In this document: positions 13,983-25,756 of the stretch, piece after piece
Layout: every line of letters starts with the position of its first letter
Position numbering within the stretch: the stretch's first letter is position 1
Source: Minisyncoccota bacterium
Lineage (GTDB): Bacteria; Patescibacteriota; Minisyncoccia; Phycocordibacterales; BOKC01
Reading direction: 5' to 3'
DNA: 64,000 nucleotides
Assembly (NCBI GenBank): GCA_030583745.1
Contig: CP129473.1
Span: 552,211 to 616,210 of the forward strand
The notes under the pieces: model-generated
What the model was told of the DNA's origin: nothing
Databases searched by the model: none
What the model saw: only the letters and a program-made list of their open reading frames with translations
Made by a program: the position numbers and the translations under genes

Positions 13983-14055
13983 GGTGCGGGATGGGAGAAT
14001 CGAACTCCCGACCGCGGTTTGGAAAACCGCTATTATACCATTTAACTAATCCCGC
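13981..14055 (-). tRNA. tRNA-Gly (anticodon UCC)
   Basis: The minus-strand sequence GCGGGAT-TA-GTTAAATGGTATAAT-A-GCGGT-TTTCCAA-ACCGC-GGTC-GGGAG-TTCGATT-CTCCC-ATCCCGC-A-CC folds as a cloverleaf. The 7-nt anticodon loop TTTCCAA gives UCC. The terminal A of CCA is not encoded. Confidence 0.85.
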
Positions 14056-14082
14056 CCTTTTTCTAAACTCTAAAATACTAGC

Positions 14083-14123
14083 AAAAAACAAAAACCTCGA
14101 CAAATTTGTCGAGGTTTTTGTTT
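14083..14123. terminator. bidirectional intrinsic terminator (perfect 20-nt palindrome CCTCGACAAATTTGTCGAGG flanked by an A-tract and a T-tract)
   Basis: A-run, then the palindrome, then TTTTTG; it can terminate transcripts from either strand. Confidence 0.65.
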
Positions 14124-14387
14124 CTGAAAAGTCAGTGAAAGTTACATAGAACCTTCTCCACCTCCTTCTGTTCCTTCAGTTTCAGGAGCCGGGGTAGTTT
14201 CTTCTCCGTTGTCTACTGGTGTTTGATTGTCGTCCATTGTTTTTTATATTAACCCTGCAAAACCTGCCATCAAAAATTTATTTTAGCGGCAGACAAATCA
14301 GGATGTATTGATAATTATTAAATCCGGCTTTTAGCCAGATTCTTCCCTATTATACACTATATCTAGAAAAGTCAAAATATTTATCCC

Positions 14388-14714
14388 TCAATTATCAACA
14401 TCTAAAGCTTTCTGGAAGTCGTCATTTACATCCAACTTATTTGTTTTTTCTAAACCGCATGAGAGGCATTTGTGCAACAATAGATTTTTCTGGCTTCTCT
14501 TGAAAAAAGAAATCGGCTTCATGAGTCCACCGCAGTCCGAGCCCCTGTCCCCCGGGTTTATATCTACATGCCGGCTCCAAAGGCAAACGGGGCAATGATT
14601 GGTGTAGCCGTTTCCTTTCACAAACTGTCTGCAATTCAAACACTCAAAGTCCTCTATTTTTCTTTGAAATCTTTTCATTAAAACATTCATTGTTCTTGAG
14701 AAATATGCTAGCAT
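14388..14714 (-). CDS. RNHCP-domain protein
   Basis: GYTNHCPVCLWSRH matches the RNHCP signature; Cys-rich (CLNC..., CLSCGLEK). Confidence 0.65.
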   Translation of the reverse strand: MLAYFSRTMNVLMKRFQRKIEDFECLNCRQFVKGNGYTNHCPVCLWSRHVDINPGDRGSDCGGLMKPISFFKRSQKNLLLHKCLSCGLEKTNKLDVNDDFQKALDVDN

Positions 14715-14735
14715 AGCGATGTTGAAGAAAAAAGA

Positions 14736-14806
14736 CGGAGCGTAGTATAACGGTAGTATACATGGTTTGGGACCATGCGGTCCGAGTTCGATTCTCGGCG
14801 CTCCGA
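14736..14806 (+). tRNA. tRNA-Pro (anticodon UGG)
   Basis: Acceptor stem CGGAGCG/CGCTCCG; anticodon stem CATGG/CCATG with loop TTTGGGA gives UGG; T-arm CCGAG-TTCGATT-CTCGG; no encoded CCA. Confidence 0.85.
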
Positions 14807-14944
14807 ACGAAACGAAGTGGGGTGAGGGGTGAGCAAGCCAACTTCTTGGCCTGTGTTCGGAATAGAACGATGGAGCATGTTATGAGGGTGGGAAACACTC
14901 TCGGTGTCTCGATCAAATAAAGATTTGGTTTCTATCTAATTTTT

Positions 14945-15358
14945 CTATTCCGGCAGAATGTCCTCAATCATCCGGACTTTTGCTGTTTTTCGGTCCGGGC
15001 TTAATAGAATTGCAATTACCGCGAATTTCCAATCAGAATTTTCCATTTTATTTTGTAATAAATACGTTTGGACAGCCATGCCGATTCTCTTTATCTTATG
15101 CTTCTCGACTCTTTCTTCCGGCCGATTCAATTCCCTATCTTCTTTCTCAAGACTAGTTTTGACTTCAATGAAATAATAAAAAATGTCTTTTTTAGAGACA
15201 ATGTCTATTTCCCCAAATTTTCGTCTAAAATTACGATTAAGTATTTTATAACCCTTATTTTTGAGGAATTTGCAGGCAATTTCCTCACCTAACTCCCCTG
15301 TTTCTAAATGTTCCGGCAATTTTTTATTGTCTTTTTGACTTTTAAATGAAAATACCAT
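14945..15358 (-). CDS. yraN: UPF0102/YraN-family endonuclease-like protein
   Basis: GEIDIV...FIEVK pattern and overall 137-aa architecture typical of YraN. Confidence 0.7.
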   Translation of the reverse strand: MVFSFKSQKDNKKLPEHLETGELGEEIACKFLKNKGYKILNRNFRRKFGEIDIVSKKDIFYYFIEVKTSLEKEDRELNRPEERVEKHKIKRIGMAVQTYLLQNKMENSDWKFAVIAILLSPDRKTAKVRMIEDILPE

Positions 15359-15556
15359 TTTTACGGCTTAAACAAAGGATTTTTGGGTGAAAAATAATAA
15401 TTTTTTGTCCAATAAAATTTTGTCCTTTATGCACATTTCCCCAGAGTTATCCACAGATATTGTCGTTAAGAAGTTATATTTTGATGCTAGTGTGTCCGCA
15501 CGATAATTTTGTGATAGCGCACGGCACAGGGTAAAAACCAATGGTAAAAATTTAGT

Positions 15557-15628
15557 GTGCGGGTAGGGAGAATCGAACTCCCGTCTGATCCTTGGCAAGG
15601 ACCTGTCATACCACTAAACTATACCCGC
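15557..15628 (-). tRNA. tRNA-Gly (anticodon GCC)
   Basis: Minus-strand GCGGGTA...GGTCC-TTGCCAA-GGATC...GGGAG-TTCGATT-CTCCC-TACCCGC-A; the anticodon loop gives GCC. Confidence 0.85.
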
Positions 15629-15901
15629 AGTATCATTAAAACTTTTAACTTGTAAAAGTTAACGATAACCATAATAACAGAATAATAAATTCATTGTCCA
15701 GAGTAATTTGTTGTTAGTTTTGGTTATCGGTCATCATTTATTAGTTATTATAAACAATGTTTTTCTTTGTCGGAGTTCGGATTACTGAAATTCTAACGAA
15801 TTTCAGTCTTGGCGGCAAATTCTTTGTTCTTTTAAATTATTAAAAATGAAAAGACCACCGTTCGCTTTCGCTACTAGGCGGCCTGGCTGTGGAGGGATGT
15901 T

Positions 15902-16351
15902 CTACTCGTTCATTCCCACCATCTTCTTGAGCTCATGCAGTAAGCTCTTCTTCGGATTGGGATTGAGGTCGTTGCTGACGTCCCAACTTGCACCCGAGTG
16001 GATGATATGCAGGATGCGCTCACGCAACTTCATCACATCCTTCGCCGAAGTGCCCTGCACGGTTAAGATCAAGTTTCGAGAGCCGAACCGCAGAAGATGC
16101 TGATCGTTCTGTTCGTACTCCTTGAACCCATTGCGACACACTTGTCCATGTGCGTTGCCGAGGTAGAAGTAAGCTTCCAACGGCTCCTGGGGGCCGCGCC
16201 AACCCTCTCGCGGATCTGTGGAAGAGACATTAATCCCCATCCTCCAACTCACAGTCATCCCCTCCGGAACGACGAAGTCATCCGGCAGGGTGACGAACGA
16301 GAGTTTGCGGACGACTTCTCCTTCGCGATTCAAAAGAACTAGACTCGACAT
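15902..16351 (-). CDS. hypothetical 149-aa protein in a GC-rich (~55%) island; no recognisable family
   Basis: Uninterrupted 149-codon ORF; strong ribosome-binding site (AAAGGAG-7nt-ATG); sigma70-like promoter upstream; composition unlike the host. Confidence 0.6.
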   Translation of the reverse strand: MSSLVLLNREGEVVRKLSFVTLPDDFVVPEGMTVSWRMGINVSSTDPREGWRGPQEPLEAYFYLGNAHGQVCRNGFKEYEQNDQHLLRFGSRNLILTVQGTSAKDVMKLRERILHIIHSGASWDVSNDLNPNPKKSLLHELKKMVGMNE

Positions 16352-16440
16352 GGTACTACTCCTTTCTTCTTTGCGTCTTGAGTTGTCCCAAGATCGCTGA
16401 GTGAAGTGAACAAGCCATCATGGTGATTGCTCTAAATATT

Positions 16441-16468
16441 AGTATAGCAATTTATACTAGTTTGTCAA
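16441..16468 (-). promoter_or_regulatory. sigma70-like promoter TTGACA-N16-TATACT driving the GC-rich gene at 15902..16351
   Basis: Minus-strand reading: ccTTGACAaactagtataaattgcTATACTaat. Confidence 0.55.
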
Positions 16469-16547
16469 GGTTTCGTGAAGATAAAAAACAGCCATATTTC
16501 AGGTCATTTTTCACTCAAAAATCCAATGATTAACTTTTCCAACGCGG

Positions 16548-16619
16548 TGCCCCCGGCAGGAATTGAACCCACATCAACCGGTTCGAAGCCGGTTATTCTA
16601 TCCATTAAACTACGGGGGC
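16548..16619 (-). tRNA. tRNA-Arg (anticodon UCG)
   Basis: Minus-strand GCCCCCG-TA-GTTTAATGGATAGAAT-A-ACCGG-CTTCGAA-CCGGT...GGGTTCAATTCC...CGGGGGC-A-CC; the anticodon loop gives UCG. Confidence 0.8.
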
Positions 16620-16681: not shown

Positions 16682-18169
16682 ATGCATCTGAACAATCCTA
16701 AAATTCCTAAGGAAATAATAAAAATTGCCGAAGAGTTGAAAAATGCCGGTTTTGAAGCTTATCTTGTGGGCGGTTGTGTTCGAGATTTGATTATTGGATT
16801 GAAACCGAAGGATTGGGATTTTGCCACCAATGCCCTACCCGACGAGATAATGAAGATTTTTAAAAACTCATTCTACGAAAATGAATACGGTACTGTCGGG
16901 GTTGTTAACGATTCGCCAGACGATGGAAATTTAGACGAGACTTTGAAAGTCGTAGAAATCACCCCCTACAGAGAAGAGACCGGCTATTCTGATTTTAGAA
17001 GGCCAGATGAAGTTAAGTTCGGGACAACATTGGAGAAAGACTTGAGCCGTAGGGATTTCACTATAAACGCCATAGCTCTAGACCCACATAAAGGACAAGT
17101 TATTGACCCATATAAAGGACAAGTTGATATAAAAGACAAAATTATAAAGGCCGTAGGCAAACCAGAAGAAAGATTTGGAGAAGACGGTTTAAGAATTCTA
17201 AGAGCTGTCCGTTTAGCTTCGGAGTTGGGATTTGAAATTGAAAAGCAAACAAGGACAGCGATTGTTTCCGGTTCGAGTTTCATAAGAAACATATCTCAAG
17301 AAAGGATAAGAGATGAGTTTTCTCGAATAATAATGTCAAAAAGCCCAGAAAATGGCCTTATTCTTTGCCAAGAGCTAGGTATTTTAAAAGAATTTTTACC
17401 AGAATTGGAAAGAGCTGTTGGGATAAAACAAAATAAAGCGCATTCTTACGATGTTTGGACGCACCTTTTAAAGAGTTTACAGCATGCAGCCAACAAAAAT
17501 ATGTCTTTTCACGTGAAACTATCAGCTCTATTCCACGATATTTCAAAGCCAAATACTAGGAGGTGGTCAGAAGAAAAAAAGGATTGGACTTTTTACGGTC
17601 ACGATGTTGTTGGTTCACGTGAAACAGAGAGAATATTAAAAAGACTGAAGTTTCCCGTGAAAACGGTTGAGAAAGTTTCTAAACTGGTTAGATGGCACAT
17701 GTTCTTTTCTGACACCGATAAAATAACACTTTCTGCGGTGAGAAGATTGGTTGCGAATGTGGGAAAAGAAGATATTTGGGAATTAATGGATTTAAGGTCT
17801 TGTGATCGAATAGGAACAGGGAGGCCAAAAGAAAGCCCATATAGATTAAGGAAATTCCATTCAATGATAGAAGAGGTTATTGCTGACCCAGTCTCTGTAT
17901 CTATGCTAAAGATAGATGGTGCGAGAATAATGGAAGTTACACAAGAAACACCCGGACCAAGAATAGGTTTTATTCTGCACGCACTACTTGAAGATGTTTT
18001 GGATGACCCGTCTTTAAATGATGAAAAATACTTAGAAAATAGGGCAGTTGAGCTATCAAAATTGGCAAATTCAGAACTTGAGAAGATAGGGCAAAGCGCA
18101 AAAGGTAGGAAGGAAGAGGAGGAAAACAAAAAATTGGCTGAAATTCGTGGAAAATACTATGTTAAATAG
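16682..18169 (+). CDS. cca: CCA-adding tRNA nucleotidyltransferase (class II) with an HD domain
   Basis: GGCVRDLIIG...DWDFAT head-domain motif and HD-domain His/Asp residues (HSYDVWTHLL, LFHDISKP). Confidence 0.85.
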   Translation: MHLNNPKIPKEIIKIAEELKNAGFEAYLVGGCVRDLIIGLKPKDWDFATNALPDEIMKIFKNSFYENEYGTVGVVNDSPDDGNLDETLKVVEITPYREETGYSDFRRPDEVKFGTTLEKDLSRRDFTINAIALDPHKGQVIDPYKGQVDIKDKIIKAVGKPEERFGEDGLRILRAVRLASELGFEIEKQTRTAIVSGSSFIRNISQERIRDEFSRIIMSKSPENGLILCQELGILKEFLPELERAVGIKQNKAHSYDVWTHLLKSLQHAANKNMSFHVKLSALFHDISKPNTRRWSEEKKDWTFYGHDVVGSRETERILKRLKFPVKTVEKVSKLVRWHMFFSDTDKITLSAVRRLVANVGKEDIWELMDLRSCDRIGTGRPKESPYRLRKFHSMIEEVIADPVSVSMLKIDGARIMEVTQETPGPRIGFILHALLEDVLDDPSLNDEKYLENRAVELSKLANSELEKIGQSAKGRKEEEENKKLAEIRGKYYVK

Positions 18170-18200
18170 CCAAGATACAGGTTTCACTTGAAACAGACAA

Positions 18201-18226
18201 AGCCTCGCGGTTGCGAGGCTTTTTTG
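18201..18226 (+). terminator. rho-independent terminator after cca
   Basis: AGCCTCGC-GGTT-GCGAGGCT hairpin followed by TTTTTTG. Confidence 0.7.
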
Positions 18227-18462
18227 TCTTTAATCGCCACGAGCAGAAATATCAGATAATTATACCTAGTTTTTAAGATGAAGTTTGTAGTGTGTATTTA
18301 TCGAACATCTCCGTTCGGGCGTTTTGCGGTTGAACCGCTGAAGAACAACATCTACTCGGCAACAGAGGTTGCCTAAAAGACATCCTTTTTAATTATACAA
18401 ATTAATAAAGGACATAAAAGTTTTTAAAGGACAAATATGTGGATAACTCGAACGAGTAATGA

Positions 18463-19233
18463 TTATTTGGCTATATTTAAAGAAATAGGGCAGTGGTCTG
18501 AACCAAAGATTTCGCTGTGTATTTTTGTTGAGATTAAATTTGGCATAAGATCTTGACTGGCAAAAAAATAATCAATTCTCCAACCAACATTTCGGTTTCT
18601 GGCAAAAGTTTTCATATCCCAGTAGGTGTAAGCTTCCTTTATGTCGGGGTAAAAATGACGAAATACATCCAAATATCCTCTTGCTATGACTTTGTCTATC
18701 CACGCGCGTTCTTCTGGAAGAAAACCTGTGTTTTTTGAATTTTCTCTTGGTCTGGCCAGATCAATTTCTTTGTGTGCGGTGTTTATATCTCCACAAAATA
18801 TGACAGAAAGCCCCATTTTTCTTAGATTTTCTGTGAATTTTAAGAATTCTTCGTAGAATTCAAGTTTGAATTTTAATCTATCCGGCCCGCTCCCGCCGTT
18901 TGGAAAATAGACATTTATTAAAGCTAAATCACCAAAATAAGCCGTTAAAAGCCGTCCTTCTTTATCAAATTTTTCTTGCCCCATTCCTTCTTCAACTGCG
19001 TCCGGTTTGTCTTTTGAATAAATGGCAACTCCGCTATAGCCCTTTTTTTCTTTGGAGTGGTCAAAAAAGCTGAAATATCCTTGAGGATTTCTGACCTCTT
19101 CCGGAAGTTGGTCTGGATGAGCTTTGGTCTCTTGAAGACAGAGAATATCGGGCTTTTCGTTCAAAAACCAATCCCAACAACCCTTTTTATAGCAAGCCCT
19201 TATGCCATTTACGTTCCAAGATATGATTTTCAC
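18463..19233 (-). CDS. xth: exodeoxyribonuclease III
   Basis: MKIISWNVNGIR...DILCLQETK and a C-terminal SDHCPI motif. Confidence 0.9.
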   Translation of the reverse strand: MKIISWNVNGIRACYKKGCWDWFLNEKPDILCLQETKAHPDQLPEEVRNPQGYFSFFDHSKEKKGYSGVAIYSKDKPDAVEEGMGQEKFDKEGRLLTAYFGDLALINVYFPNGGSGPDRLKFKLEFYEEFLKFTENLRKMGLSVIFCGDINTAHKEIDLARPRENSKNTGFLPEERAWIDKVIARGYLDVFRHFYPDIKEAYTYWDMKTFARNRNVGWRIDYFFASQDLMPNLISTKIHSEIFGSDHCPISLNIAK

Positions 19234-19425
19234 GGCTAAATGATAACACGGATGAAAATGAAAAACCGACCGCCCTTGTGCTTGGCAGTCTTGGATTCGG
19301 CGGAACCCAGTTTCTCTTTGGAGATTAAGATGACCACAAGCGGTGCCCTATTTTTGGCCATTTTTACACACATCCATTAAATCTAGTAAAAAGTGCCAAA
19401 AGTGTTTAGACATTACCTATTTTAA

Positions 19426-19453
19426 TTGACTTTTTGCTTTGTTTTGCTATAAT
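19426..19453 (+). promoter_or_regulatory. sigma70-like promoter TTGACT-N16-TATAAT
   Basis: aatTTGACTttttgctttgttttgcTATAATaaagg, upstream of the GC-rich lipoprotein gene. Confidence 0.55.
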
Positions 19454-19534
19454 AAAGGTAGATTTTTCGAAAACCTCTTGGACCTTCGGCTTGTTGCTGT
19501 TGGTTTCTTGAGAGACAAGAAAAAGGAGCGGGGA

Positions 19535-19789
19535 ATGAAAAGGCAAAGGCAGAAGTCCGCGCCTTTGGCGGCGGCAGGAACGCTACTGTTCGTGGTCGCG
19601 TTCGGTTCCGGCTGCTCAAATGCCGGGGAAGGTGCCTTGTCTGGCGCCGCGCTCGGGGCTCTGGCTGGAATGGGACTTGGGTCCCTTACCGGTAGCATGG
19701 GGCAGGGCGCGGCCGCCGGTGCGATCATCGGTGGCGTCGGGGGAGCAGTCATCGGCGACCAGAACAGTCGCCAGGAAAGGTACCGTTGA
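19535..19789 (+). CDS. OsmB-like glycine-zipper lipoprotein, GC-rich
   Basis: Lipobox LLFVVAFGSG-C-SN; Gly-zipper GALAGMGLGSLTGSMGQGAAAGAIIGGVGGAVIG; ribosome-binding site AAGGAG-6nt-ATG; ~65% GC over the coding region. Confidence 0.7.
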   Translation: MKRQRQKSAPLAAAGTLLFVVAFGSGCSNAGEGALSGAALGALAGMGLGSLTGSMGQGAAAGAIIGGVGGAVIGDQNSRQERYR

Positions 19790-19885
19790 CCCCGGAAGGG
19801 CTGTCCAGACTGAACCGAAAGGTGAAAGTCTGGCAGCCCCATTTTTTTGAATTGATATTTTATTAAATTATGCTAGAATATAGCT

Positions 19886-20158
19886 ATGTTGACAAAGAAT
19901 AAGAAACAAAGGGCCATAAAAGCTGTAAAAATCCATGATTCTGATACTGGGTCCCCGGAAGTTCAGATCGCCATTTTAACAAAAAGGATAGAAGAGCTTT
20001 CTGGTCATTTAAAGAAAAACAATAAAGACAATCATTCAAGAAGAGGTCTTTTGGGTCTAGTTGCTAAACGCCAAAAGCATATGAATTATCTTGCCAAAAA
20101 AAATCCGGCCAGATATAGGTCTGTTTTAAAAAAGTTAGAACTTAAAAAGGTTAAATAA
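19886..20158 (+). CDS. rpsO: 30S ribosomal protein S15
   Basis: 90 aa; HDSDTGSPEVQIAILTKRI...LSGHLKKNNKDNHSRRGLL matches S15. Confidence 0.9.
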   Translation: MLTKNKKQRAIKAVKIHDSDTGSPEVQIAILTKRIEELSGHLKKNNKDNHSRRGLLGLVAKRQKHMNYLAKKNPARYRSVLKKLELKKVK

Positions 20159-20186
20159 TGCCTATTTTATAAGATAAATTTTTACG

Positions 20187-20207
20187 ACGAGAATCCTTCT
20201 CGTTTTT
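20187..20207 (+). terminator. rho-independent terminator after rpsO
   Basis: ACGAGAA-TCC-TTCTCGT hairpin followed by TTTTT. Confidence 0.6.
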
Positions 20208-20217
20208 AAAGTGTTTT

Positions 20218-20751
20218 ATGTCTGTAATTAAACACGCGCATCAGAAAGTTGGAGTTTTCATAGATACCCAGAATCTTTATCACAGTGCCAAGCATTTATA
20301 CAACGCTCGAGTTAACTTCGGGCAAGTTTTAAAAGACGCGGTCTCTGATCGACTCATAATTCGAGCTATTGCTTATGTCATAACGACGGAAACCGGCGAG
20401 GAAAAGGCCTTTTTTGAGGCATTGGTTAAACTTGGGATAGAAACCAAGACAAAAAACCTCCAGATTTTTGCTGGCGGGGCTAAAAAAGGGGATTGGGATG
20501 TCGGGATTGCTGTTGATGCTATAAAATTTGCGCCGAAACTTGACGCTGTTGTTTTGGTTTCGGGTGATGGTGATTTCGTGCCTCTTGTTGAGTATCTTAA
20601 GACCAATCAAGGTTGTCAGGTTGAAGTTGCTTCTTTCAGGCGCTCGGCTTCAAGCCGGCTCATAGAAGTAGCTGATGATTTTATTGATCTAGATAAAGAT
20701 CCTAAGAAATATCTTCTTCAGTCTAGCCGACCGAGAAGGCAGAGAGGTTAG
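20218..20751 (+). CDS. NYN-domain (LabA-like) predicted RNase
   Basis: VGVFIDTQNLY and VLVSGDGDF motifs of the NYN/LabA family. Confidence 0.7.
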   Translation: MSVIKHAHQKVGVFIDTQNLYHSAKHLYNARVNFGQVLKDAVSDRLIIRAIAYVITTETGEEKAFFEALVKLGIETKTKNLQIFAGGAKKGDWDVGIAVDAIKFAPKLDAVVLVSGDGDFVPLVEYLKTNQGCQVEVASFRRSASSRLIEVADDFIDLDKDPKKYLLQSSRPRRQRG

Positions 20752-20792
20752 TTTTTTCGGATTGTTGGTGGGCTCTCGAAATAGGGTAGTGA

Positions 20793-20818
20793 TGCCTGAC
20801 GTTTTTCAGGCCTTTTTG
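20793..20818 (+). terminator. rho-independent terminator
   Basis: GCCTGAC-GTTTTT-CAGGC hairpin followed by CTTTTTG. Confidence 0.5.
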
Positions 20819-20899
20819 TGTATAAAAGTGTTTGTAAAAATTTAGATTAGATAGTATATTTTGTTTCGGGTCAAATTTTATGAATCTAATTTTTTTTAA

Positions 20900-21508
20900 A
20901 TGAAAAAATCAATAATCGTCTTAGTTATTGTTGTAGCTCTGGTTGTAGTCGGAGCGGTTTGGGCTTTCAACACCAACCGAGCCGTCGCACCGGAGAATGG
21001 AGTTGTCCAAAATGGGGAGGTTGATACTTCCGATTGGCAGACGTATCGAAATGAGGAGTTAGGGTTTGAGTTTAGGTATCCAAGGGAGTGGGGGGAAGTT
21101 GCAGTTTCTCCGGTAACTCCAATAGTTTCAATGGTTATAGGCATACCAGGTAATGATCAGAGTAAAATTCGCTTTAACATAAATTCTGCTCAAAGAACTG
21201 ATCAACAGTTGAAAAACTTAGTATATTTACAGGTAGAGGGAGATCAGTGTGAATTCAATCTAGCAACCTCAAGAGAACTTCCAAATAGTAAATTTTCCAG
21301 TATAAGAATGGAGCAAACACAAACACGACTATCCTGGGAAGAATGTCTGACTATTTCTAATACTATTCCAGACGATAGAAAAGAAAGAAAAGTTATTAGT
21401 CCTCACGCCTATACCGTTGTCTATCTTAATGACAACGAAGTTCCAGAAGTTATGCGAAAAGATTATCAGGAATTTAAATTATTTATAAAATCGTTTAAAA
21501 CGATATGA
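20900..21508 (+). CDS. hypothetical secreted/membrane-anchored protein
   Basis: N-terminal TM/signal segment (IIVLVIVVALVVVGAVWAF); 202 aa. Confidence 0.5.
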   Translation: MKKSIIVLVIVVALVVVGAVWAFNTNRAVAPENGVVQNGEVDTSDWQTYRNEELGFEFRYPREWGEVAVSPVTPIVSMVIGIPGNDQSKIRFNINSAQRTDQQLKNLVYLQVEGDQCEFNLATSRELPNSKFSSIRMEQTQTRLSWEECLTISNTIPDDRKERKVISPHAYTVVYLNDNEVPEVMRKDYQEFKLFIKSFKTI

Positions 21509-22218
21509 TGATCAAACAAAAACATCTTTTTATCACTATTCTTGTTTTGGGTCTGTTCACTCTATCTTTACTTGCTGTAGCAGACACCACGAATTCTACA
21601 CAATCTCTTATTTCTAATTCTGAAACAGAAAAAGATGTTGTGGAGGGTAAATCAAAAACCACTAGTTCTAGCGACCCGATTCTCCCAATAATTACTGATA
21701 CACAAAAGCCAGCAACAACCTATACTCACCCAGAACTCGGTTATTCTTTTGAGTATTTATCAGATTGGTTGCTCGGCACTTATAAAAGCAACGGCTATGA
21801 GGCAGTAGGACTATGGGACCCCGTAGCACAACAGCAAGAGGGCGCGGAAGGCCATCTCATACAAGGGGCGAAGATTGAAATATCCACCTGCAACTGCGCT
21901 CCAATAAGTTCTTTCAAAAACACAATCGTAGAACGAACCGGAAAAGGCCCTGAAACAATAACCAGTGTTTCTGAATCAACCCTTAATATTTATAAGGACC
22001 AAACACCAGTATCAGTTGTAAGAGTAGATTACAAAACAGAACTCGGGGGAGGTAAAAGCGTATATTTTGTTGGTAGAGATGGATTGCTTTATGTGCTCAC
22101 TTTAGGGATTCCGAATCTTGAAACTTTGGGAACTGGCCAACTTCAAGAATACAGGTCTGTTTTTGAGGACGTGATTCAATCATTTACCTTTAGCGAAATT
22201 GCTTATGAAAACCACTAA
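21505..22218 (+). CDS. hypothetical secreted protein
   Basis: Signal-peptide-like N-terminus; 237 aa; start and stop overlap the neighbouring genes. Confidence 0.5.
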   Translation: MMIKQKHLFITILVLGLFTLSLLAVADTTNSTQSLISNSETEKDVVEGKSKTTSSSDPILPIITDTQKPATTYTHPELGYSFEYLSDWLLGTYKSNGYEAVGLWDPVAQQQEGAEGHLIQGAKIEISTCNCAPISSFKNTIVERTGKGPETITSVSESTLNIYKDQTPVSVVRVDYKTELGGGKSVYFVGRDGLLYVLTLGIPNLETLGTGQLQEYRSVFEDVIQSFTFSEIAYENH

Positions 22219-25200
22219 GATATTAAGCATAATTTTTGGAACACTCATTTTCTTTGCTGTAGTTTTATCTGTTTTTGCCAACCCAAGAATATTATATCTA
22301 CCTTTTACTGATCTTGAAGTTTTTCTCAAGCACGGATGGTACTATGATGAACAGGAAACAGATGAGCATAAAGGAATAGATTATTTCAAAGGACAGTCAG
22401 GAAACTGGCAAGAGTTTGAAATTCTCGCTGTGGCGGGAGGAGTAGCTGAGTATAGACCAAATGGTAGTCCAACGTGGGGTAATTATGTTGTTATTGACCA
22501 TCAAACCGGCTCACCCCCTTATTATACCGTTTACGCTCATCTAGAAAGCTCACCCTTACCCGCTTATACACAAACGGCAGTTAATGAAGGTGATTTAATA
22601 GGTATTGCTGGTGCTACTGGGTTCACCGATCCACCGGGAACAGTTCATCTACATCTTGAATGGTCAAAGGACGGAATAGGGCAGTTTGGTACTAAACTTG
22701 ATCCTTATGGGATTAAAAAATATTACACATATTATCCTGGTTATCCAAATTTTATAGATTGTGGCATTGACCTTCAAAATCCAGGTGTTTTCTGGTGGAC
22801 AGAATGTCCGCCGATTCCACCTGGTGGAGGCGGGGATGATCCACTTCCGGTAATAAATGTTTCCGGAAATATCACCGAAGACACAACATGGAAAGCGGGG
22901 TATGTGTATTTAATTCAGGGGTCAGTGACGGTGGTTGAAAATGTAACTTTAACTTTAGAGCCCGGAGTAATCGTCAAATTTCAAAACACCTCCTCCCGCT
23001 TCAACATCTACGGAAACCTCTACGCCCAAGGAACCCAACAAAACAAAATCCACTTCACCTCATACAAAGACGATACGGTCGGCGGTGATTCAAACGGAGA
23101 TGGCAACAATTCATCGCCGGCTCCCAGCAATTGGCGGCAAATCACTGTCTTTGAGAATGGTTCAGCCGATCTTTCCCACGCCGTCTTGCGCTATGGCGGC
23201 TACACTTGCGCCTACTGCGGCATCAATCCCGGAGGTCTTTTAGTGGACGGCGGACAACTTACCCTCGCCGACACTTTGATTGAGAAGAACAATTATGGGA
23301 TATATTTCAAAAACATCACCGGCACTACAAGCATTTCCAACTCCACCATTTCTAACAACACTTCTTATGGCATCTTCTCAACCGGCGGCAACCACGACAT
23401 ATATCTCTCCAACTCCACCATCTCCAACCATTCCGATACCGGTATCTATGCTTCCGCCAGCGCCACAACTACTGTTTCGCTTTTGAACAATACTTTCCAG
23501 AACAACCAAACAAGAGACGGTTACTTTTCCATTTCCAACATTAACTTCATCAACCAAGGGAACACTACTTCAGGCACCGGAGGCAACGGCTTCCACATTT
23601 CAGGCACTCTTTTAGGCAACCAAATCTGGAACCCTGGTGTCCCTTACATTATCAGCACCGTCACCTTACCGGCCGATACCACTCTCACAATTAACCCCAA
23701 TACCATCGTCAAATTTCAAAACACCTCCTCCCGCTTCAACATCTACGGAAACCTCTACGCCCAAGGAACCCAACAAAACAAAATCCACTTCACCTCATAC
23801 AAAGACGATACGGTCGGCGGTGATTCAAACGGAGATGGCAACAATTCATCGCCGGCTCCCAGCAATTGGCGGCAAATCACTGTCTTTGAGAATGGTTCAG
23901 CCGATCTTTCCCACGCCGTCTTGCGCTATGGCGGCTACACTTGCGCCTACTGCGGCATCAATCCCGGAGGTCTTTTAGTGGACGGCGGACAACTTACCCT
24001 CGCCGACACTTTGATTGAGAAGAACAATTATGGGATATATTTCAAAAACATCACCGGCACTACAAGCATTTCCAACTCCACCATTTCTAACAACACTTCT
24101 TATGGCATCTTCTCAACCGGCGGCAACCACGACATATATCTCTCCAACTCCACCATCTCCAACCATTCCGATACCGGTATCTATGCTTCCGCCAGCGCCA
24201 CAACTACTGTTTCGCTTTTGAACAATACTTTCCAGAACAACCAAACAAGAGACGGTTACTTTTCCATTTCCAACATTAACTTCATCAACCAAGGGAACAC
24301 TACTTCAGGCACCGGAGGCAACGGCTTCCACATTTCAGGCACTCTTTTAGGCAACCAAATCTGGAACCCTGGTGTCCCTTACATTATCAGCACCGTCACC
24401 TTACCGGCCGATACCACTCTCACAATTAACCCCAATACCATCGTCAAATTTCAAAACACCTCCTCCCGCTTCAACATCTACGGAAACCTCTACGCCCAAG
24501 GAACCCAACAAAACAAAATCTACTTCACCTCATACAAAGACGATACGGTCGGCGGTGATTCAAACGGAGATGGCAACAATTCATCGCCGGCTCCCAGCAA
24601 TTGGCGGCAAATCACTGTCTTTGAGAATGGTTCAGCCGATCTTTCCCACGCCGTCTTGCGCTATGGCGGCTACACTTGCGCCTACTGCGGCATCAATCCC
24701 GGAGGTCTTTTAGTGGACGGCGGACAACTTACCCTCGCCGACACTTTGATTGAGAAGAACAATTATGGGATATATTTCAAAAACATCACCGGCACTACAA
24801 GCATTTCCAACTCCACCATTTCTAACAACACTTCTTATGGCATCTTCTCAACCGGCGGCAACCACGACATATATCTCTCCAACTCCACCATCTCCAACCA
24901 TTCCGATACCGGTATCTATGCTTCCGCCAGCGCCACAACTACTGTTTCGCTTTTGAACAATACTTTCCAGAACAACCAAACAAGAGACGGTTACTTTTCC
25001 ATTTCCAACATTAACTTCATCAACCAAGGGAACACTACTTCAGGCACCGGAGGCAACGGCTTCCACATTTCAGGCACTCTTTTAGGCAACCAAATCTGGA
25101 ACCCTGGTGTCCCTTACATTATCAGCACCGTCACCTTACCGGCCGATACCACTCTCACAATTAACCCCAATACCATCGTCAAATTTCAAAACACCTCCTC

Positions 25201-25756
25201 CCGCTTCAACATCTACGGAAACCTCTACGCCCAAGGAACCCAACAAAACAAAATCTACTTCACCTCTTACCGAGACGACACAATCGGAGGTGACTCCAAC
25301 GGAGATGGCAACAATTCATCGCCGGCTCCCAGCAATTGGCGGCAAATCACTGTCTTTGAGAATGGTTCAGCCGATCTTTCCCACGCCGTCTTGCGCTATG
25401 GCGGCTACACTTGCGCCTACTGCGGCATCAATCCCGGAGGTCTTTTAGTGGACGGCGGACAACTTACCCTCGCCGACACTTTGATTGAGAAGAACAATTA
25501 TGGGATCTACCGGCGGACTAGCGGTAATGTTTCCGTCACTCAAAGCTCAATTAAAGAGAATACCTCCTACGGCATATATCACACCGGCACCGGGACAACG
25601 ACCGCCACTTCAAACTGGTGGGGAGATCCGAGCGGGCCTTATCATCCGCAAAACAATCCAAACGGACAAGGCGACAGAGTCTCAAATAATGTGGAATTCA
25701 GCTCCTGGTTAATTGAGGATCCTTTTTGGAAACAATTTATATTTCCCAAAAAGTAG
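22199..25756 (+). CDS. giant secreted protein: N-terminal M23 (LytM) peptidase domain followed by tandem right-handed beta-helix (NosD/pectin-lyase-like) repeats
   Basis: HKGIDYF...VVIDHQ...HLHLEW M23 zinc-site motifs. Three identical 245-aa repeats rich in NxT/S and I-Y-G/S-N-T-I-S-N rungs. Confidence 0.75.
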   Translation: MLMKTTKILSIIFGTLIFFAVVLSVFANPRILYLPFTDLEVFLKHGWYYDEQETDEHKGIDYFKGQSGNWQEFEILAVAGGVAEYRPNGSPTWGNYVVIDHQTGSPPYYTVYAHLESSPLPAYTQTAVNEGDLIGIAGATGFTDPPGTVHLHLEWSKDGIGQFGTKLDPYGIKKYYTYYPGYPNFIDCGIDLQNPGVFWWTECPPIPPGGGGDDPLPVINVSGNITEDTTWKAGYVYLIQGSVTVVENVTLTLEPGVIVKFQNTSSRFNIYGNLYAQGTQQNKIHFTSYKDDTVGGDSNGDGNNSSPAPSNWRQITVFENGSADLSHAVLRYGGYTCAYCGINPGGLLVDGGQLTLADTLIEKNNYGIYFKNITGTTSISNSTISNNTSYGIFSTGGNHDIYLSNSTISNHSDTGIYASASATTTVSLLNNTFQNNQTRDGYFSISNINFINQGNTTSGTGGNGFHISGTLLGNQIWNPGVPYIISTVTLPADTTLTINPNTIVKFQNTSSRFNIYGNLYAQGTQQNKIHFTSYKDDTVGGDSNGDGNNSSPAPSNWRQITVFENGSADLSHAVLRYGGYTCAYCGINPGGLLVDGGQLTLADTLIEKNNYGIYFKNITGTTSISNSTISNNTSYGIFSTGGNHDIYLSNSTISNHSDTGIYASASATTTVSLLNNTFQNNQTRDGYFSISNINFINQGNTTSGTGGNGFHISGTLLGNQIWNPGVPYIISTVTLPADTTLTINPNTIVKFQNTSSRFNIYGNLYAQGTQQNKIYFTSYKDDTVGGDSNGDGNNSSPAPSNWRQITVFENGSADLSHAVLRYGGYTCAYCGINPGGLLVDGGQLTLADTLIEKNNYGIYFKNITGTTSISNSTISNNTSYGIFSTGGNHDIYLSNSTISNHSDTGIYASASATTTVSLLNNTFQNNQTRDGYFSISNINFINQGNTTSGTGGNGFHISGTLLGNQIWNPGVPYIISTVTLPADTTLTINPNTIVKFQNTSSRFNIYGNLYAQGTQQNKIYFTSYRDDTIGGDSNGDGNNSSPAPSNWRQITVFENGSADLSHAVLRYGGYTCAYCGINPGGLLVDGGQLTLADTLIEKNNYGIYRRTSGNVSVTQSSIKENTSYGIYHTGTGTTTATSNWWGDPSGPYHPQNNPNGQGDRVSNNVEFSSWLIEDPFWKQFIFPKK
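22970..25505. repeat. 735-bp tandem repeat: 3 essentially identical copies (22970, 23705, 24440) plus a diverged partial 4th copy (25175..~25505)
   Basis: Period 735 nt (245 codons). Copies 1-2 differ from copies 3-4 by one SNP (CAC/TAC, His/Tyr). The 4th copy carries a ~40-nt patch with 9 mostly synonymous substitutions. Confidence 0.95.

Follow-up and report, generated by a model that had tools for sequence, protein, structure and literature searches.

Window positions 19535 to 19789, on the plus strand of contig CP129473.1 of a Minisyncoccota bacterium (Patescibacteria, candidate phyla radiation, CPR), hold a gene for an 84-residue glycine-zipper protein of the lipoprotein type. By "the window" we mean the whole stretch of 64,000 nucleotides that was analysed (contig positions 552,211 to 616,210), and all positions below are counted from its first letter. 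We consider it probable that this is a functional, horizontally acquired gene that is ancestral to a small clade of these ultra-small CPR bacteria. An ancestor of the clade, which now comprises at least three lineages, would have taken up the coding sequence of a Phycisphaerae-type family. The acquired gene would then have come to sit, with a host-style promoter and its own terminator, between xth (exonuclease III, 18463..19233, minus strand) and rpsO (ribosomal protein S15, 19886..20158), next to an orphan gene of 153 residues.

Composition of the gene

The GC content of the gene is 0.65 and that of the window is about 0.40. Roughly half of this excess is due to the Gly/Ala composition of the protein, which explains codon positions 1 and 2 only. 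With the codon usage of the window, the protein would be expected to give GC contents at the first, second and third codon positions (GC1, GC2 and GC3) of 0.646, 0.607 and 0.417 (standard deviation 0.052), and 0.557 overall; the observed values are 0.659, 0.612 and 0.69. The observed GC3 was reached by none of 10,000 genes simulated with host codon usage, and the excess, about 5 standard deviations, is driven by GGG and GCG, codons that are rare in the host. The GC3 excess is a true anomaly, and the gene is compositionally foreign to this AT-rich genome. A preliminary description of the locus had called it foreign at about 65% GC, a view that stands for the third codon positions and falls away for the half of the excess that stems from Gly and Ala. 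The GC content steps from 0.26 to 0.78 within 300 bp at the locus, while the best matches of the neighbouring genes of the window are Patescibacteria metagenome-assembled genomes (MAGs).

Homologues and donor group

A collection of 5.8 billion proteins yielded 257 homologues. All eight that carry an organism name belong to Phycisphaerales, Phycisphaerae or Planctomycetota, and none is proteobacterial. The top matches from outside the CPR have a fixed core of 51 residues that runs from the lipobox Cys to GDQN. The core of the window protein is also exactly 51 residues long and is identical at 48 of 51 positions to the best match (P0024), at 47 to several others and at 46 to the family consensus. 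The five homologue contigs that were fetched, one of them a 3.47-Mb contig of GCA_048500435.1, have 69-70% GC, with a GC3 of 0.82-0.89 in the gene itself. The homologues in Phycisphaerae look like ordinary chromosomal single genes beside a gene for a LON-substrate-binding-domain protein. The family is characteristic of Phycisphaerae (Planctomycetota), where it is large and diverse and its composition is native.

The similarity extends to DNA over a short interval. In short-word blastn comparisons with five GC-rich homologue loci, homology to Phycisphaerales genes was limited to 19609..19766, within the core of the coding sequence, where no sampled GC-rich homologue is more than 78% identical, and no DNA homology to Phycisphaerales loci was found in the 5' untranslated region. 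Identity to the closest Phycisphaerales gene is 0.96 at first, 0.98 at second and 0.39 at third codon positions.

The Phycisphaerae and Planctomycetota proteins are uncharacterised and are annotated as "glycine zipper domain-containing protein" (for example KDA28_05165, which is P0024, and KJZ54_13180, which is P0028). They share with the window protein its architecture, length and Pfam domains: a signal peptide, a lipobox Cys, the 51-residue core C[SN]NAGEGA...GDQN and a basic tail. The window gene differs in its AT-rich CPR host, in its lower GC3 (0.69 versus 0.82-0.89) and in its neighbouring genes. The turn reads GSMGQG in the window protein and GDMGKG in Phycisphaerae, so that both charges are lost, and the short tail of the window protein ends without the terminal W/Y-rich part that two diverged CPR relatives described below (L186 and L188) retain.

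The preliminary description had assigned the gene to the proteobacterial OsmB type with E. coli-like codons, an assignment that the homologues contradict. OsmB is an outer-membrane protein of diderm bacteria under RpoS and osmotic control. Like the window protein, E. coli OsmB is a small lipoprotein-type precursor with Cys-Ser-Asn and GxxxG helices, in the same Pfam-level group. However, the two gave no BLASTP alignment at expect values (E) up to 100, with a provisional OsmB sequence as query, and no OsmB family is among the NCBIfam matches of the window protein. The term "OsmB-like" holds only at the level of the glycine-zipper lipoprotein superfamily.

Junctions in independent assemblies

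The gene is joined to its surroundings at the same 5' and 3' junctions in about 20 contigs, which come from at least 14 sequencing runs and several accession series, and also in two NCBI MAGs. Nine separately assembled contigs encode the exact protein; the eight of these that were examined (seven from SRR13617028-41 and one from DRR859401) all carry xth, the gene, rpsO and the NYN gene in that order. Variant alleles, 87-94% identical, occupy this position in MAG GCA_016860785.1 and also in runs DRR258781, SRR23332754, DRR859393, SRR34423825, SRR22401809, SRR28297103, SRR21707676 and SRR29564157. Chimerism and contamination, which had been raised as possibilities, are excluded as far as assemblies can show.

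Age of the transfer

The informative relatives beyond strain level, closer than any retrieved by the scans with S15 or xth, were reached only indirectly, by way of the orphan neighbour gene. In two diverged lineages, L186/L187 (GCA_020724885.1 and SRR6488455) and L188 (SRR25057013), the order is xth, orphan, glycine-zipper gene and then rpsO, the L188 contig ending at the rpsO promoter. The proteins of L186/L187 have diverged from those of the window, with identities of 80-83% for xth, 87.5-88% for S15 and 90-93% for NYN. The glycine-zipper gene of L186 and L188 encodes 86 or 89 residues and has a GC content of 0.68-0.70 and a GC3 of 0.76-0.77, against backgrounds of 0.43-0.52.

Identity at four-fold degenerate sites between the window and L186 is 0.475 for the glycine-zipper gene and 0.36-0.49 for the S15, NYN and xth genes. 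The divergence of the gene is thus like that of its flanks, indicating that they diverged together. These data are explained most simply by a single uptake in an ancestor shared by at least three CPR lineages, which have passed the gene on vertically ever since. The preliminary description had proposed a recent horizontal acquisition; the transfer is upheld, but its recency is not, given that two further CPR lineages carry the cassette at this site and that the synonymous divergence is flank-like. It had also held that the transfer would be called into question if the closest homologues lay in related Patescibacteria with similar local GC. Related CPR copies do occur at the same site, but they are GC-anomalous relative to their own genomes too, which leaves the transfer unrefuted, and the nearest homologues outside the CPR clade that carry an organism name are all from Phycisphaerae or other Planctomycetota.

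The third codon positions of the window gene are roughly half-way from a donor-like GC3 (about 0.85) to that of the host (about 0.4). In an estimate of neutral decay that takes about half of the four-fold sites to have been substituted in each lineage, GC3 would fall from a start of about 0.88 to 0.63-0.69; the observed values are 0.69-0.77. Selection maintaining GC3 was also considered and was rejected as unnecessary, since the rough neutral prediction lies near the observed values. The direction of strain polymorphisms (5 GC-to-AT versus 4 AT-to-GC changes in a hand count) is uninformative on AT bias.

Insertion site and distribution in CPR relatives

The window's own species and close relatives are absent from the GTDB species set that was scanned with S15. 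The window S15 is at most 67% identical to anything in that set, the best CPR names being Zambryskibacteria and Kaiserbacteria, and the best match in a metagenome scan with xth is 68% identical. By tblastn, no copy of the glycine-zipper gene was found in 80 S15-retrieved loci of other genomes, of which 8 are CPR-like to judge by their rpsO-NYN synteny, nor in 80 CPR-like loci that xth retrieved from metagenomes. About 25 of these loci retain the order CCA, xth, gap, rpsO, NYN. In about 45 of them, a gene for an XerC/XerD-like tyrosine recombinase lies directly beside xth and fills the gap (for example L015 2580..3614 and L100 2008..2970). No such recombinase gene is present in the 64-kb window, and the cassette therefore occupies the place of the recombinase gene.

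The second member of the cassette is the orphan, which in the window is a decayed remnant. It is intact in L012 (5430..5891), L178 (2430..2891) and L179, where it lies between xth and the glycine-zipper promoter in divergent orientation, with a GC content of 0.51 and a GC3 of 0.56. Only three clusters of this protein were found in the collection of 5.8 billion proteins, and the contig examined for each cluster has the glycine-zipper gene as neighbour. The orphan has no match in Pfam, PHROGs or PADLOC. As to a mobile vector, tblastn gave no match in 72,556 plasmids and 50,697 phages, with the caveat that low-complexity filtering may conceal some; PADLOC gave 0 matches and PHROGs two weak ones, of unknown function only.

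The transcription unit

The gene forms a compact transcription unit between xth and rpsO. The features of the cassette are as follows.

19236..19373, minus strand: decayed remnant of the 153-residue orphan gene, divergent from the glycine-zipper gene in the same cassette
19426..19453, plus strand: promoter, TTGACT, 16-nt spacer, TG-n-TATAAT (extended -10)
19454..19534, plus strand: 5' untranslated region, about 75 nt, containing the ribosome-binding site AAGGAG (19523..19528)
19535..19789, plus strand: putative glycine-zipper lipoprotein-type open reading frame, 84 residues; protein MKRQRQKSAPLAAAGTLLFVVAFGSG followed by CSNAGEGALSGAALGALAGMGLGSLTGSMGQGAAAGAIIGGVGGAVIGDQNSRQERYR
19535..19615, plus strand: predicted signal peptide MKRQRQKSAPLAAAGTLLFVVAFGSG and lipobox Cys (codons 1-27)
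19616..19789, plus strand: mature 57-residue peptide and stop codon; two glycine-zipper helices and a polar DQN..R tail
19796..19848, plus strand: intrinsic terminator, a long GC-rich hairpin GGGCTGTCCAGACT...AGTCTGGCAGCCC followed by T7

The promoter is of the housekeeping sigma-70-like class and matches the consensus at 11 of 12 positions. Only four sites on both strands of the whole window match at 11 or more of 12 positions, where chance would give about 1.5. All have a 16-nt spacer, and three of the four carry the TG, as does the weaker promoter of rpsO (19852..19879), which has the same layout of 16-nt spacer and TG. Because these traits are common to other promoters of the window, the glycine-zipper promoter looks host-native. 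It is conserved across all strain alleles, and in alignments to the window its -35 box with a T-run is also kept in the diverged lineages L186 and L188.

Translation probably begins at ATG 19535, which AAGGAG precedes with a 6-nt spacer; the preliminary description had identified both these signals and the promoter correctly. Some gene callers choose an alternative start, TTG 19478, that adds 19 residues. We prefer the ATG, since it follows a ribosome-binding site and yields a signal peptide of 26 residues, comparable to those of the homologues. A stretch of the untranslated region, TCGGCTTGTTGC, is common to the window, L186 and L188. The terminator hairpin folds as RNA at -29.5 kcal/mol and was missed by a consensus scan because its loop exceeds 8 nt. 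In seven aligned strain loci the promoter, untranslated region and terminator are almost identical, with at most 2 substitutions in the promoter and untranslated region together and changes in the terminator confined to the loop.

Variation and selection among strains

Strain identity in the CCA, xth, rpsO and NYN genes is 97.4-100%; of the four strains compared, three reach about 99% or more. In the signal-peptide segment, identity between the window and L009 drops to about 85%. Among the window, L001, L009, L011, L178 and L182 there are six DNA alleles of the signal peptide, which differ by substitutions and by in-frame indels of 3, 6 and 9 nt. The indels lie at short direct repeats and involve duplicated AGGCAR, AAGTCS, GTACTC and GGC units. 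The signal peptide is a micro-hotspot of variation, next to a mature peptide that is nearly invariant.

Every indel among the strain alleles is in frame. Of 12 variable codons in the mature part, eight are synonymous, two are conservative replacements in the core (A to T and A to V) and two lie in the tail, where one is S to G and the other a stop that removes the last two residues. The ratio of nonsynonymous to synonymous substitution rates in the core is about 0.1 by a rough estimate, indicating that the peptide is functional. We count purifying selection on the glycine-zipper peptide among the established features of the locus, together with the reality of the gene, its family, its foreign composition, its distribution and its synteny.

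The protein and its predicted structure

To judge from its sequence, the product is a glycine-zipper protein of the lipoprotein type, encoded by a real gene, as had been supposed. It matches Pfam PF13488 (Gly-zipper_Omp) at 35.5 bits, above the gathering cutoff of 25, over residues 37-81 and profile positions 2-46 of 46. Scores for the sister Pfam families YMGG, OmpA-zipper and Rick_17kDa are under threshold, and that for PF05433 (Glycine zipper 2TM, SlyB/Pcp) is 16.3 bits against a cutoff of 24.2. The predicted signal peptide has a K/R-rich n-region, a hydrophobic h-region and FGSG-C, with Cys27-Ser-Asn after the cleavage site. In an alignment of 120 homologues Cys27 is invariant, as are the glycines of the GxxxG repeats at positions 33, 37, 41, 45, 49 and 53 and at 58, 62, 66, 70 and 74. 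The strain alleles of the lipobox (SATGC, ATGGC and FGSGC) always retain the Cys.

An AlphaFold2 model, with the homologue alignment as input, consists of a signal-peptide helix and a two-helix hairpin (helices 29-52 and 55-83). The mean predicted local distance difference test score is 81, rising to 88-93 over the hairpin.

The best-understood mechanism for this motif is that of SlyB and YfgH, which resemble the window protein in having an N-terminal lipid anchor followed by a glycine-zipper hairpin. SlyB (7ojf) gives a weak local match (41% identity over 41 residues, root-mean-square deviation 2.1 Å) that is not significant; SlyB also has an extra periplasmic domain, whereas the window protein is a hairpin only, in a host without an outer membrane. 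The best NCBIfam match is the N-terminal zipper of YiaD (NF053611), which covers the lipobox and the zipper, but it scores 26.5 bits against a cutoff of 175, and the OmpA-like C-terminal domain of YiaD is absent.

The second zipper helix, MGQGAAAGAIIGGVGGAVIG (residues 55-79, 19697..19771), resembles the glycine-rich hydrophobic segment of prion protein, AGAAAAGAVVGGLGGY. The comparison of the family profile with this mammalian segment (E = 0.003) was the sole near-significant match in searches of solved structures. The prion segment is a known glycine-zipper look-alike, and homology was rejected in favour of a resemblance of motifs.

Alternative explanations

The evidence bears on four other readings of the locus. 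The abrupt step in GC and the homologues from a different phylum are what a GC-rich fragment misjoined into a CPR contig would leave behind. Such an error is hardly credible when about 20 separately assembled contigs and MAG GCA_016860785.1 have identical junctions, when L186/L187 and L188 share the arrangement, when the promoter, untranslated region and terminator are contiguous and host-like, and when the DNA resembles sampled GC-rich homologues at only 78%, in the coding core alone. That the gene is native to the CPR and GC-rich merely as a by-product of Gly and Ala is very unlikely. The GC expected with host codons is already 0.557, with GC1 and GC2 as expected, and the site is fixed in at least three CPR lineages, but the GC3 lies about 5 standard deviations over expectation and reaches 0.76-0.77 in the other two lineages; moreover, the gene is absent from all 160 retrieved loci, among which most of those that are relevant are CPR-like, and the family is large, diverse and native in composition in Planctomycetota. 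GC-rich islands in AT-rich genomes are often RNA genes, and this locus has both a promoter and a terminator. A structured RNA with a chance reading frame can nevertheless be given next to no weight, since there are a Pfam match and hundreds of protein homologues, the substitutions are codon-periodic (0.96, 0.98, 0.39) and the indels are in frame. No Rfam family was found in 18000..21500 at E up to 1, and with protein-coding signals that are decisive an RNA gene was rejected.

A different view of function, compatible with transfer, takes the peptide to be an effector or toxin that damages membranes, or to imitate an outer-membrane lipoprotein of the host. The episymbiotic CPR cell would deploy it against the host envelope or into it, and the donor phylum would then point to the host. 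In favour of this view, it is not obvious where an outer-membrane-type protein would reside in a cell that lacks an outer membrane, purifying selection has kept the gene in at least three CPR lineages, and the weak fold matches include alpha-pore-forming toxins. Glycine-zipper segments also occur in pore-forming and membrane-damaging effectors, one reported example being the type VII secretion system effector LXG-T2 of Streptococcus suis (PMC12955049). We nonetheless judge this view unlikely: the neighbours are xth, rpsO, NYN and the orphan, with no secretion-system, immunity or toxin-domain gene adjacent, PADLOC has no matches, the toxin fold matches are not significant, and the Phycisphaerae homologues look like ordinary chromosomal single genes.

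Proposed mechanism

We return to the preferred reading, that of a functional acquired gene, and to what its product may do. An outer membrane is thought to be absent from Patescibacteria. Sec would export the precursor, which, if the host has Lgt and LspA, would be lipid-modified and cleaved at Cys27. The 57-residue mature peptide would then be tethered to the outer face of the cytoplasmic membrane, the site proposed because CPR bacteria are without an outer membrane. Its two GxxxG helices would form a hairpin, pack helix to helix and oligomerise in or on the bilayer, and the peptide may stabilise the membrane or buffer stress, as SlyB, YfgH and OsmB do in diderm bacteria. The glycine-zipper lipoproteins SlyB, YfgH, OsmB and YiaD have a stabilising effect on the outer membrane, and SlyB assembles into ring oligomers (bioRxiv 10.64898/2025.12.22.696046). 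By this analogy we tentatively propose the lipidation, location, oligomerisation and physiological role, as a mechanism that we hold to be somewhat less likely than not.

Several observations count against the transfer and the mechanism as set out here. Placement of the donor depends on identity counts over a highly constrained core of 51 residues, in which all three CPR cores are 45-46/51 to the family consensus and the window is 45/51 to the other two CPR copies. With the CPR cores equidistant and a third-position identity of 0.39, these counts suggest that the donor cannot be named more precisely than Phycisphaerae-type. A gene of the same 51-residue-core family at 249..494 of L183 (ENA ERZ27292242, 819 bp), with a GC of 0.53 and a GC3 of 0.51, lies beside a dUTPase-like gene in a contig of 35% GC, and the family is therefore not strictly confined to high-GC organisms; L183 may represent a second transfer, into a low-GC organism, that has gone further in amelioration. 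The lipobox FGSG-C-SN, which the preliminary description called classic, is present; the n- and h-regions fit a lipoprotein signal, as do Gly at -1 and Ser at -2 of the pattern [LVI][ASTVI][GAS]C, but the Gly at -3 is non-canonical. Neither in fold nor in sequence is any match to SlyB or TraT significant (E 1.6 to 8.4 by Foldseek, 8.4 being the value for SlyB; phmmer E = 1.9 for 7ojf). Crude motif and tblastn screens, the latter with provisional E. coli queries, found neither Lgt nor LspA in the 64-kb window or the fetched loci, and a crude motif screen found no other lipobox open reading frame in the window. Finally, the site of action of the known functional analogues is an outer membrane, a structure that CPR cells are thought not to have.

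Other features of the window

A perfect GC-rich hairpin, AAAGCCUCGCGGUUGCGAGGCUUU, with A- and T-run flanks, lies at 18165..18274 between the convergent genes for the CCA-adding enzyme and xth. It is probably a bidirectional terminator, and weak Rfam leader-peptide matches arise from it. At gathering scores, Rfam found in the whole window only four tRNAs and weak terminator-like matches elsewhere, and ARAGORN found no tmRNA. The four tRNA genes (Gly-TCC, Pro-TGG, Gly-GCC and Arg-TCG) form a loose cluster at 13983..16619.

Several other parts of the window are also above its GC background of about 0.40. An open reading frame of 1184 residues (22205..25756, plus strand) has a GC of 0.47 and a GC3 of 0.53, and the intervals 13-14 kb, 32-33 kb and 63-64 kb are moderately GC-richer. 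A pair of PsbP_2-like secreted proteins (202 and 237 residues, 20900..22218) varies between strains: L009 and L178 retain the window version, and L001, L003, L011 and L012 have proteins of 179 and 229 residues in its place, with only the first 117 nt in common.

Significance

The case is a real but fairly ordinary transfer between phyla and no new kind of system. In one survey, cross-phylum transfers into Patescibacteria were far fewer than transfers within the group (PMC12455944). This one is clean and well bounded, and the recipient site, the promoter that drives the gene, its compositional drift toward the host and the selective constraint on it can all be read from the sequence. A more far-reaching idea, which we regard as improbable, is that an outer-membrane-type glycine-zipper lipoprotein from Phycisphaerae was kept past the clade's own speciation and is used at the symbiont-host interface, inserted into the host envelope or mimicking it. 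If so, the donor phylum would name the host of the clade, and the rapidly changing signal peptide would be the re-fitting of a diderm export signal to the CPR export machinery. The gene also raises the question of what role a glycine-zipper lipoprotein, whose characterised relatives stabilise the outer membrane, would have in a cell without one.

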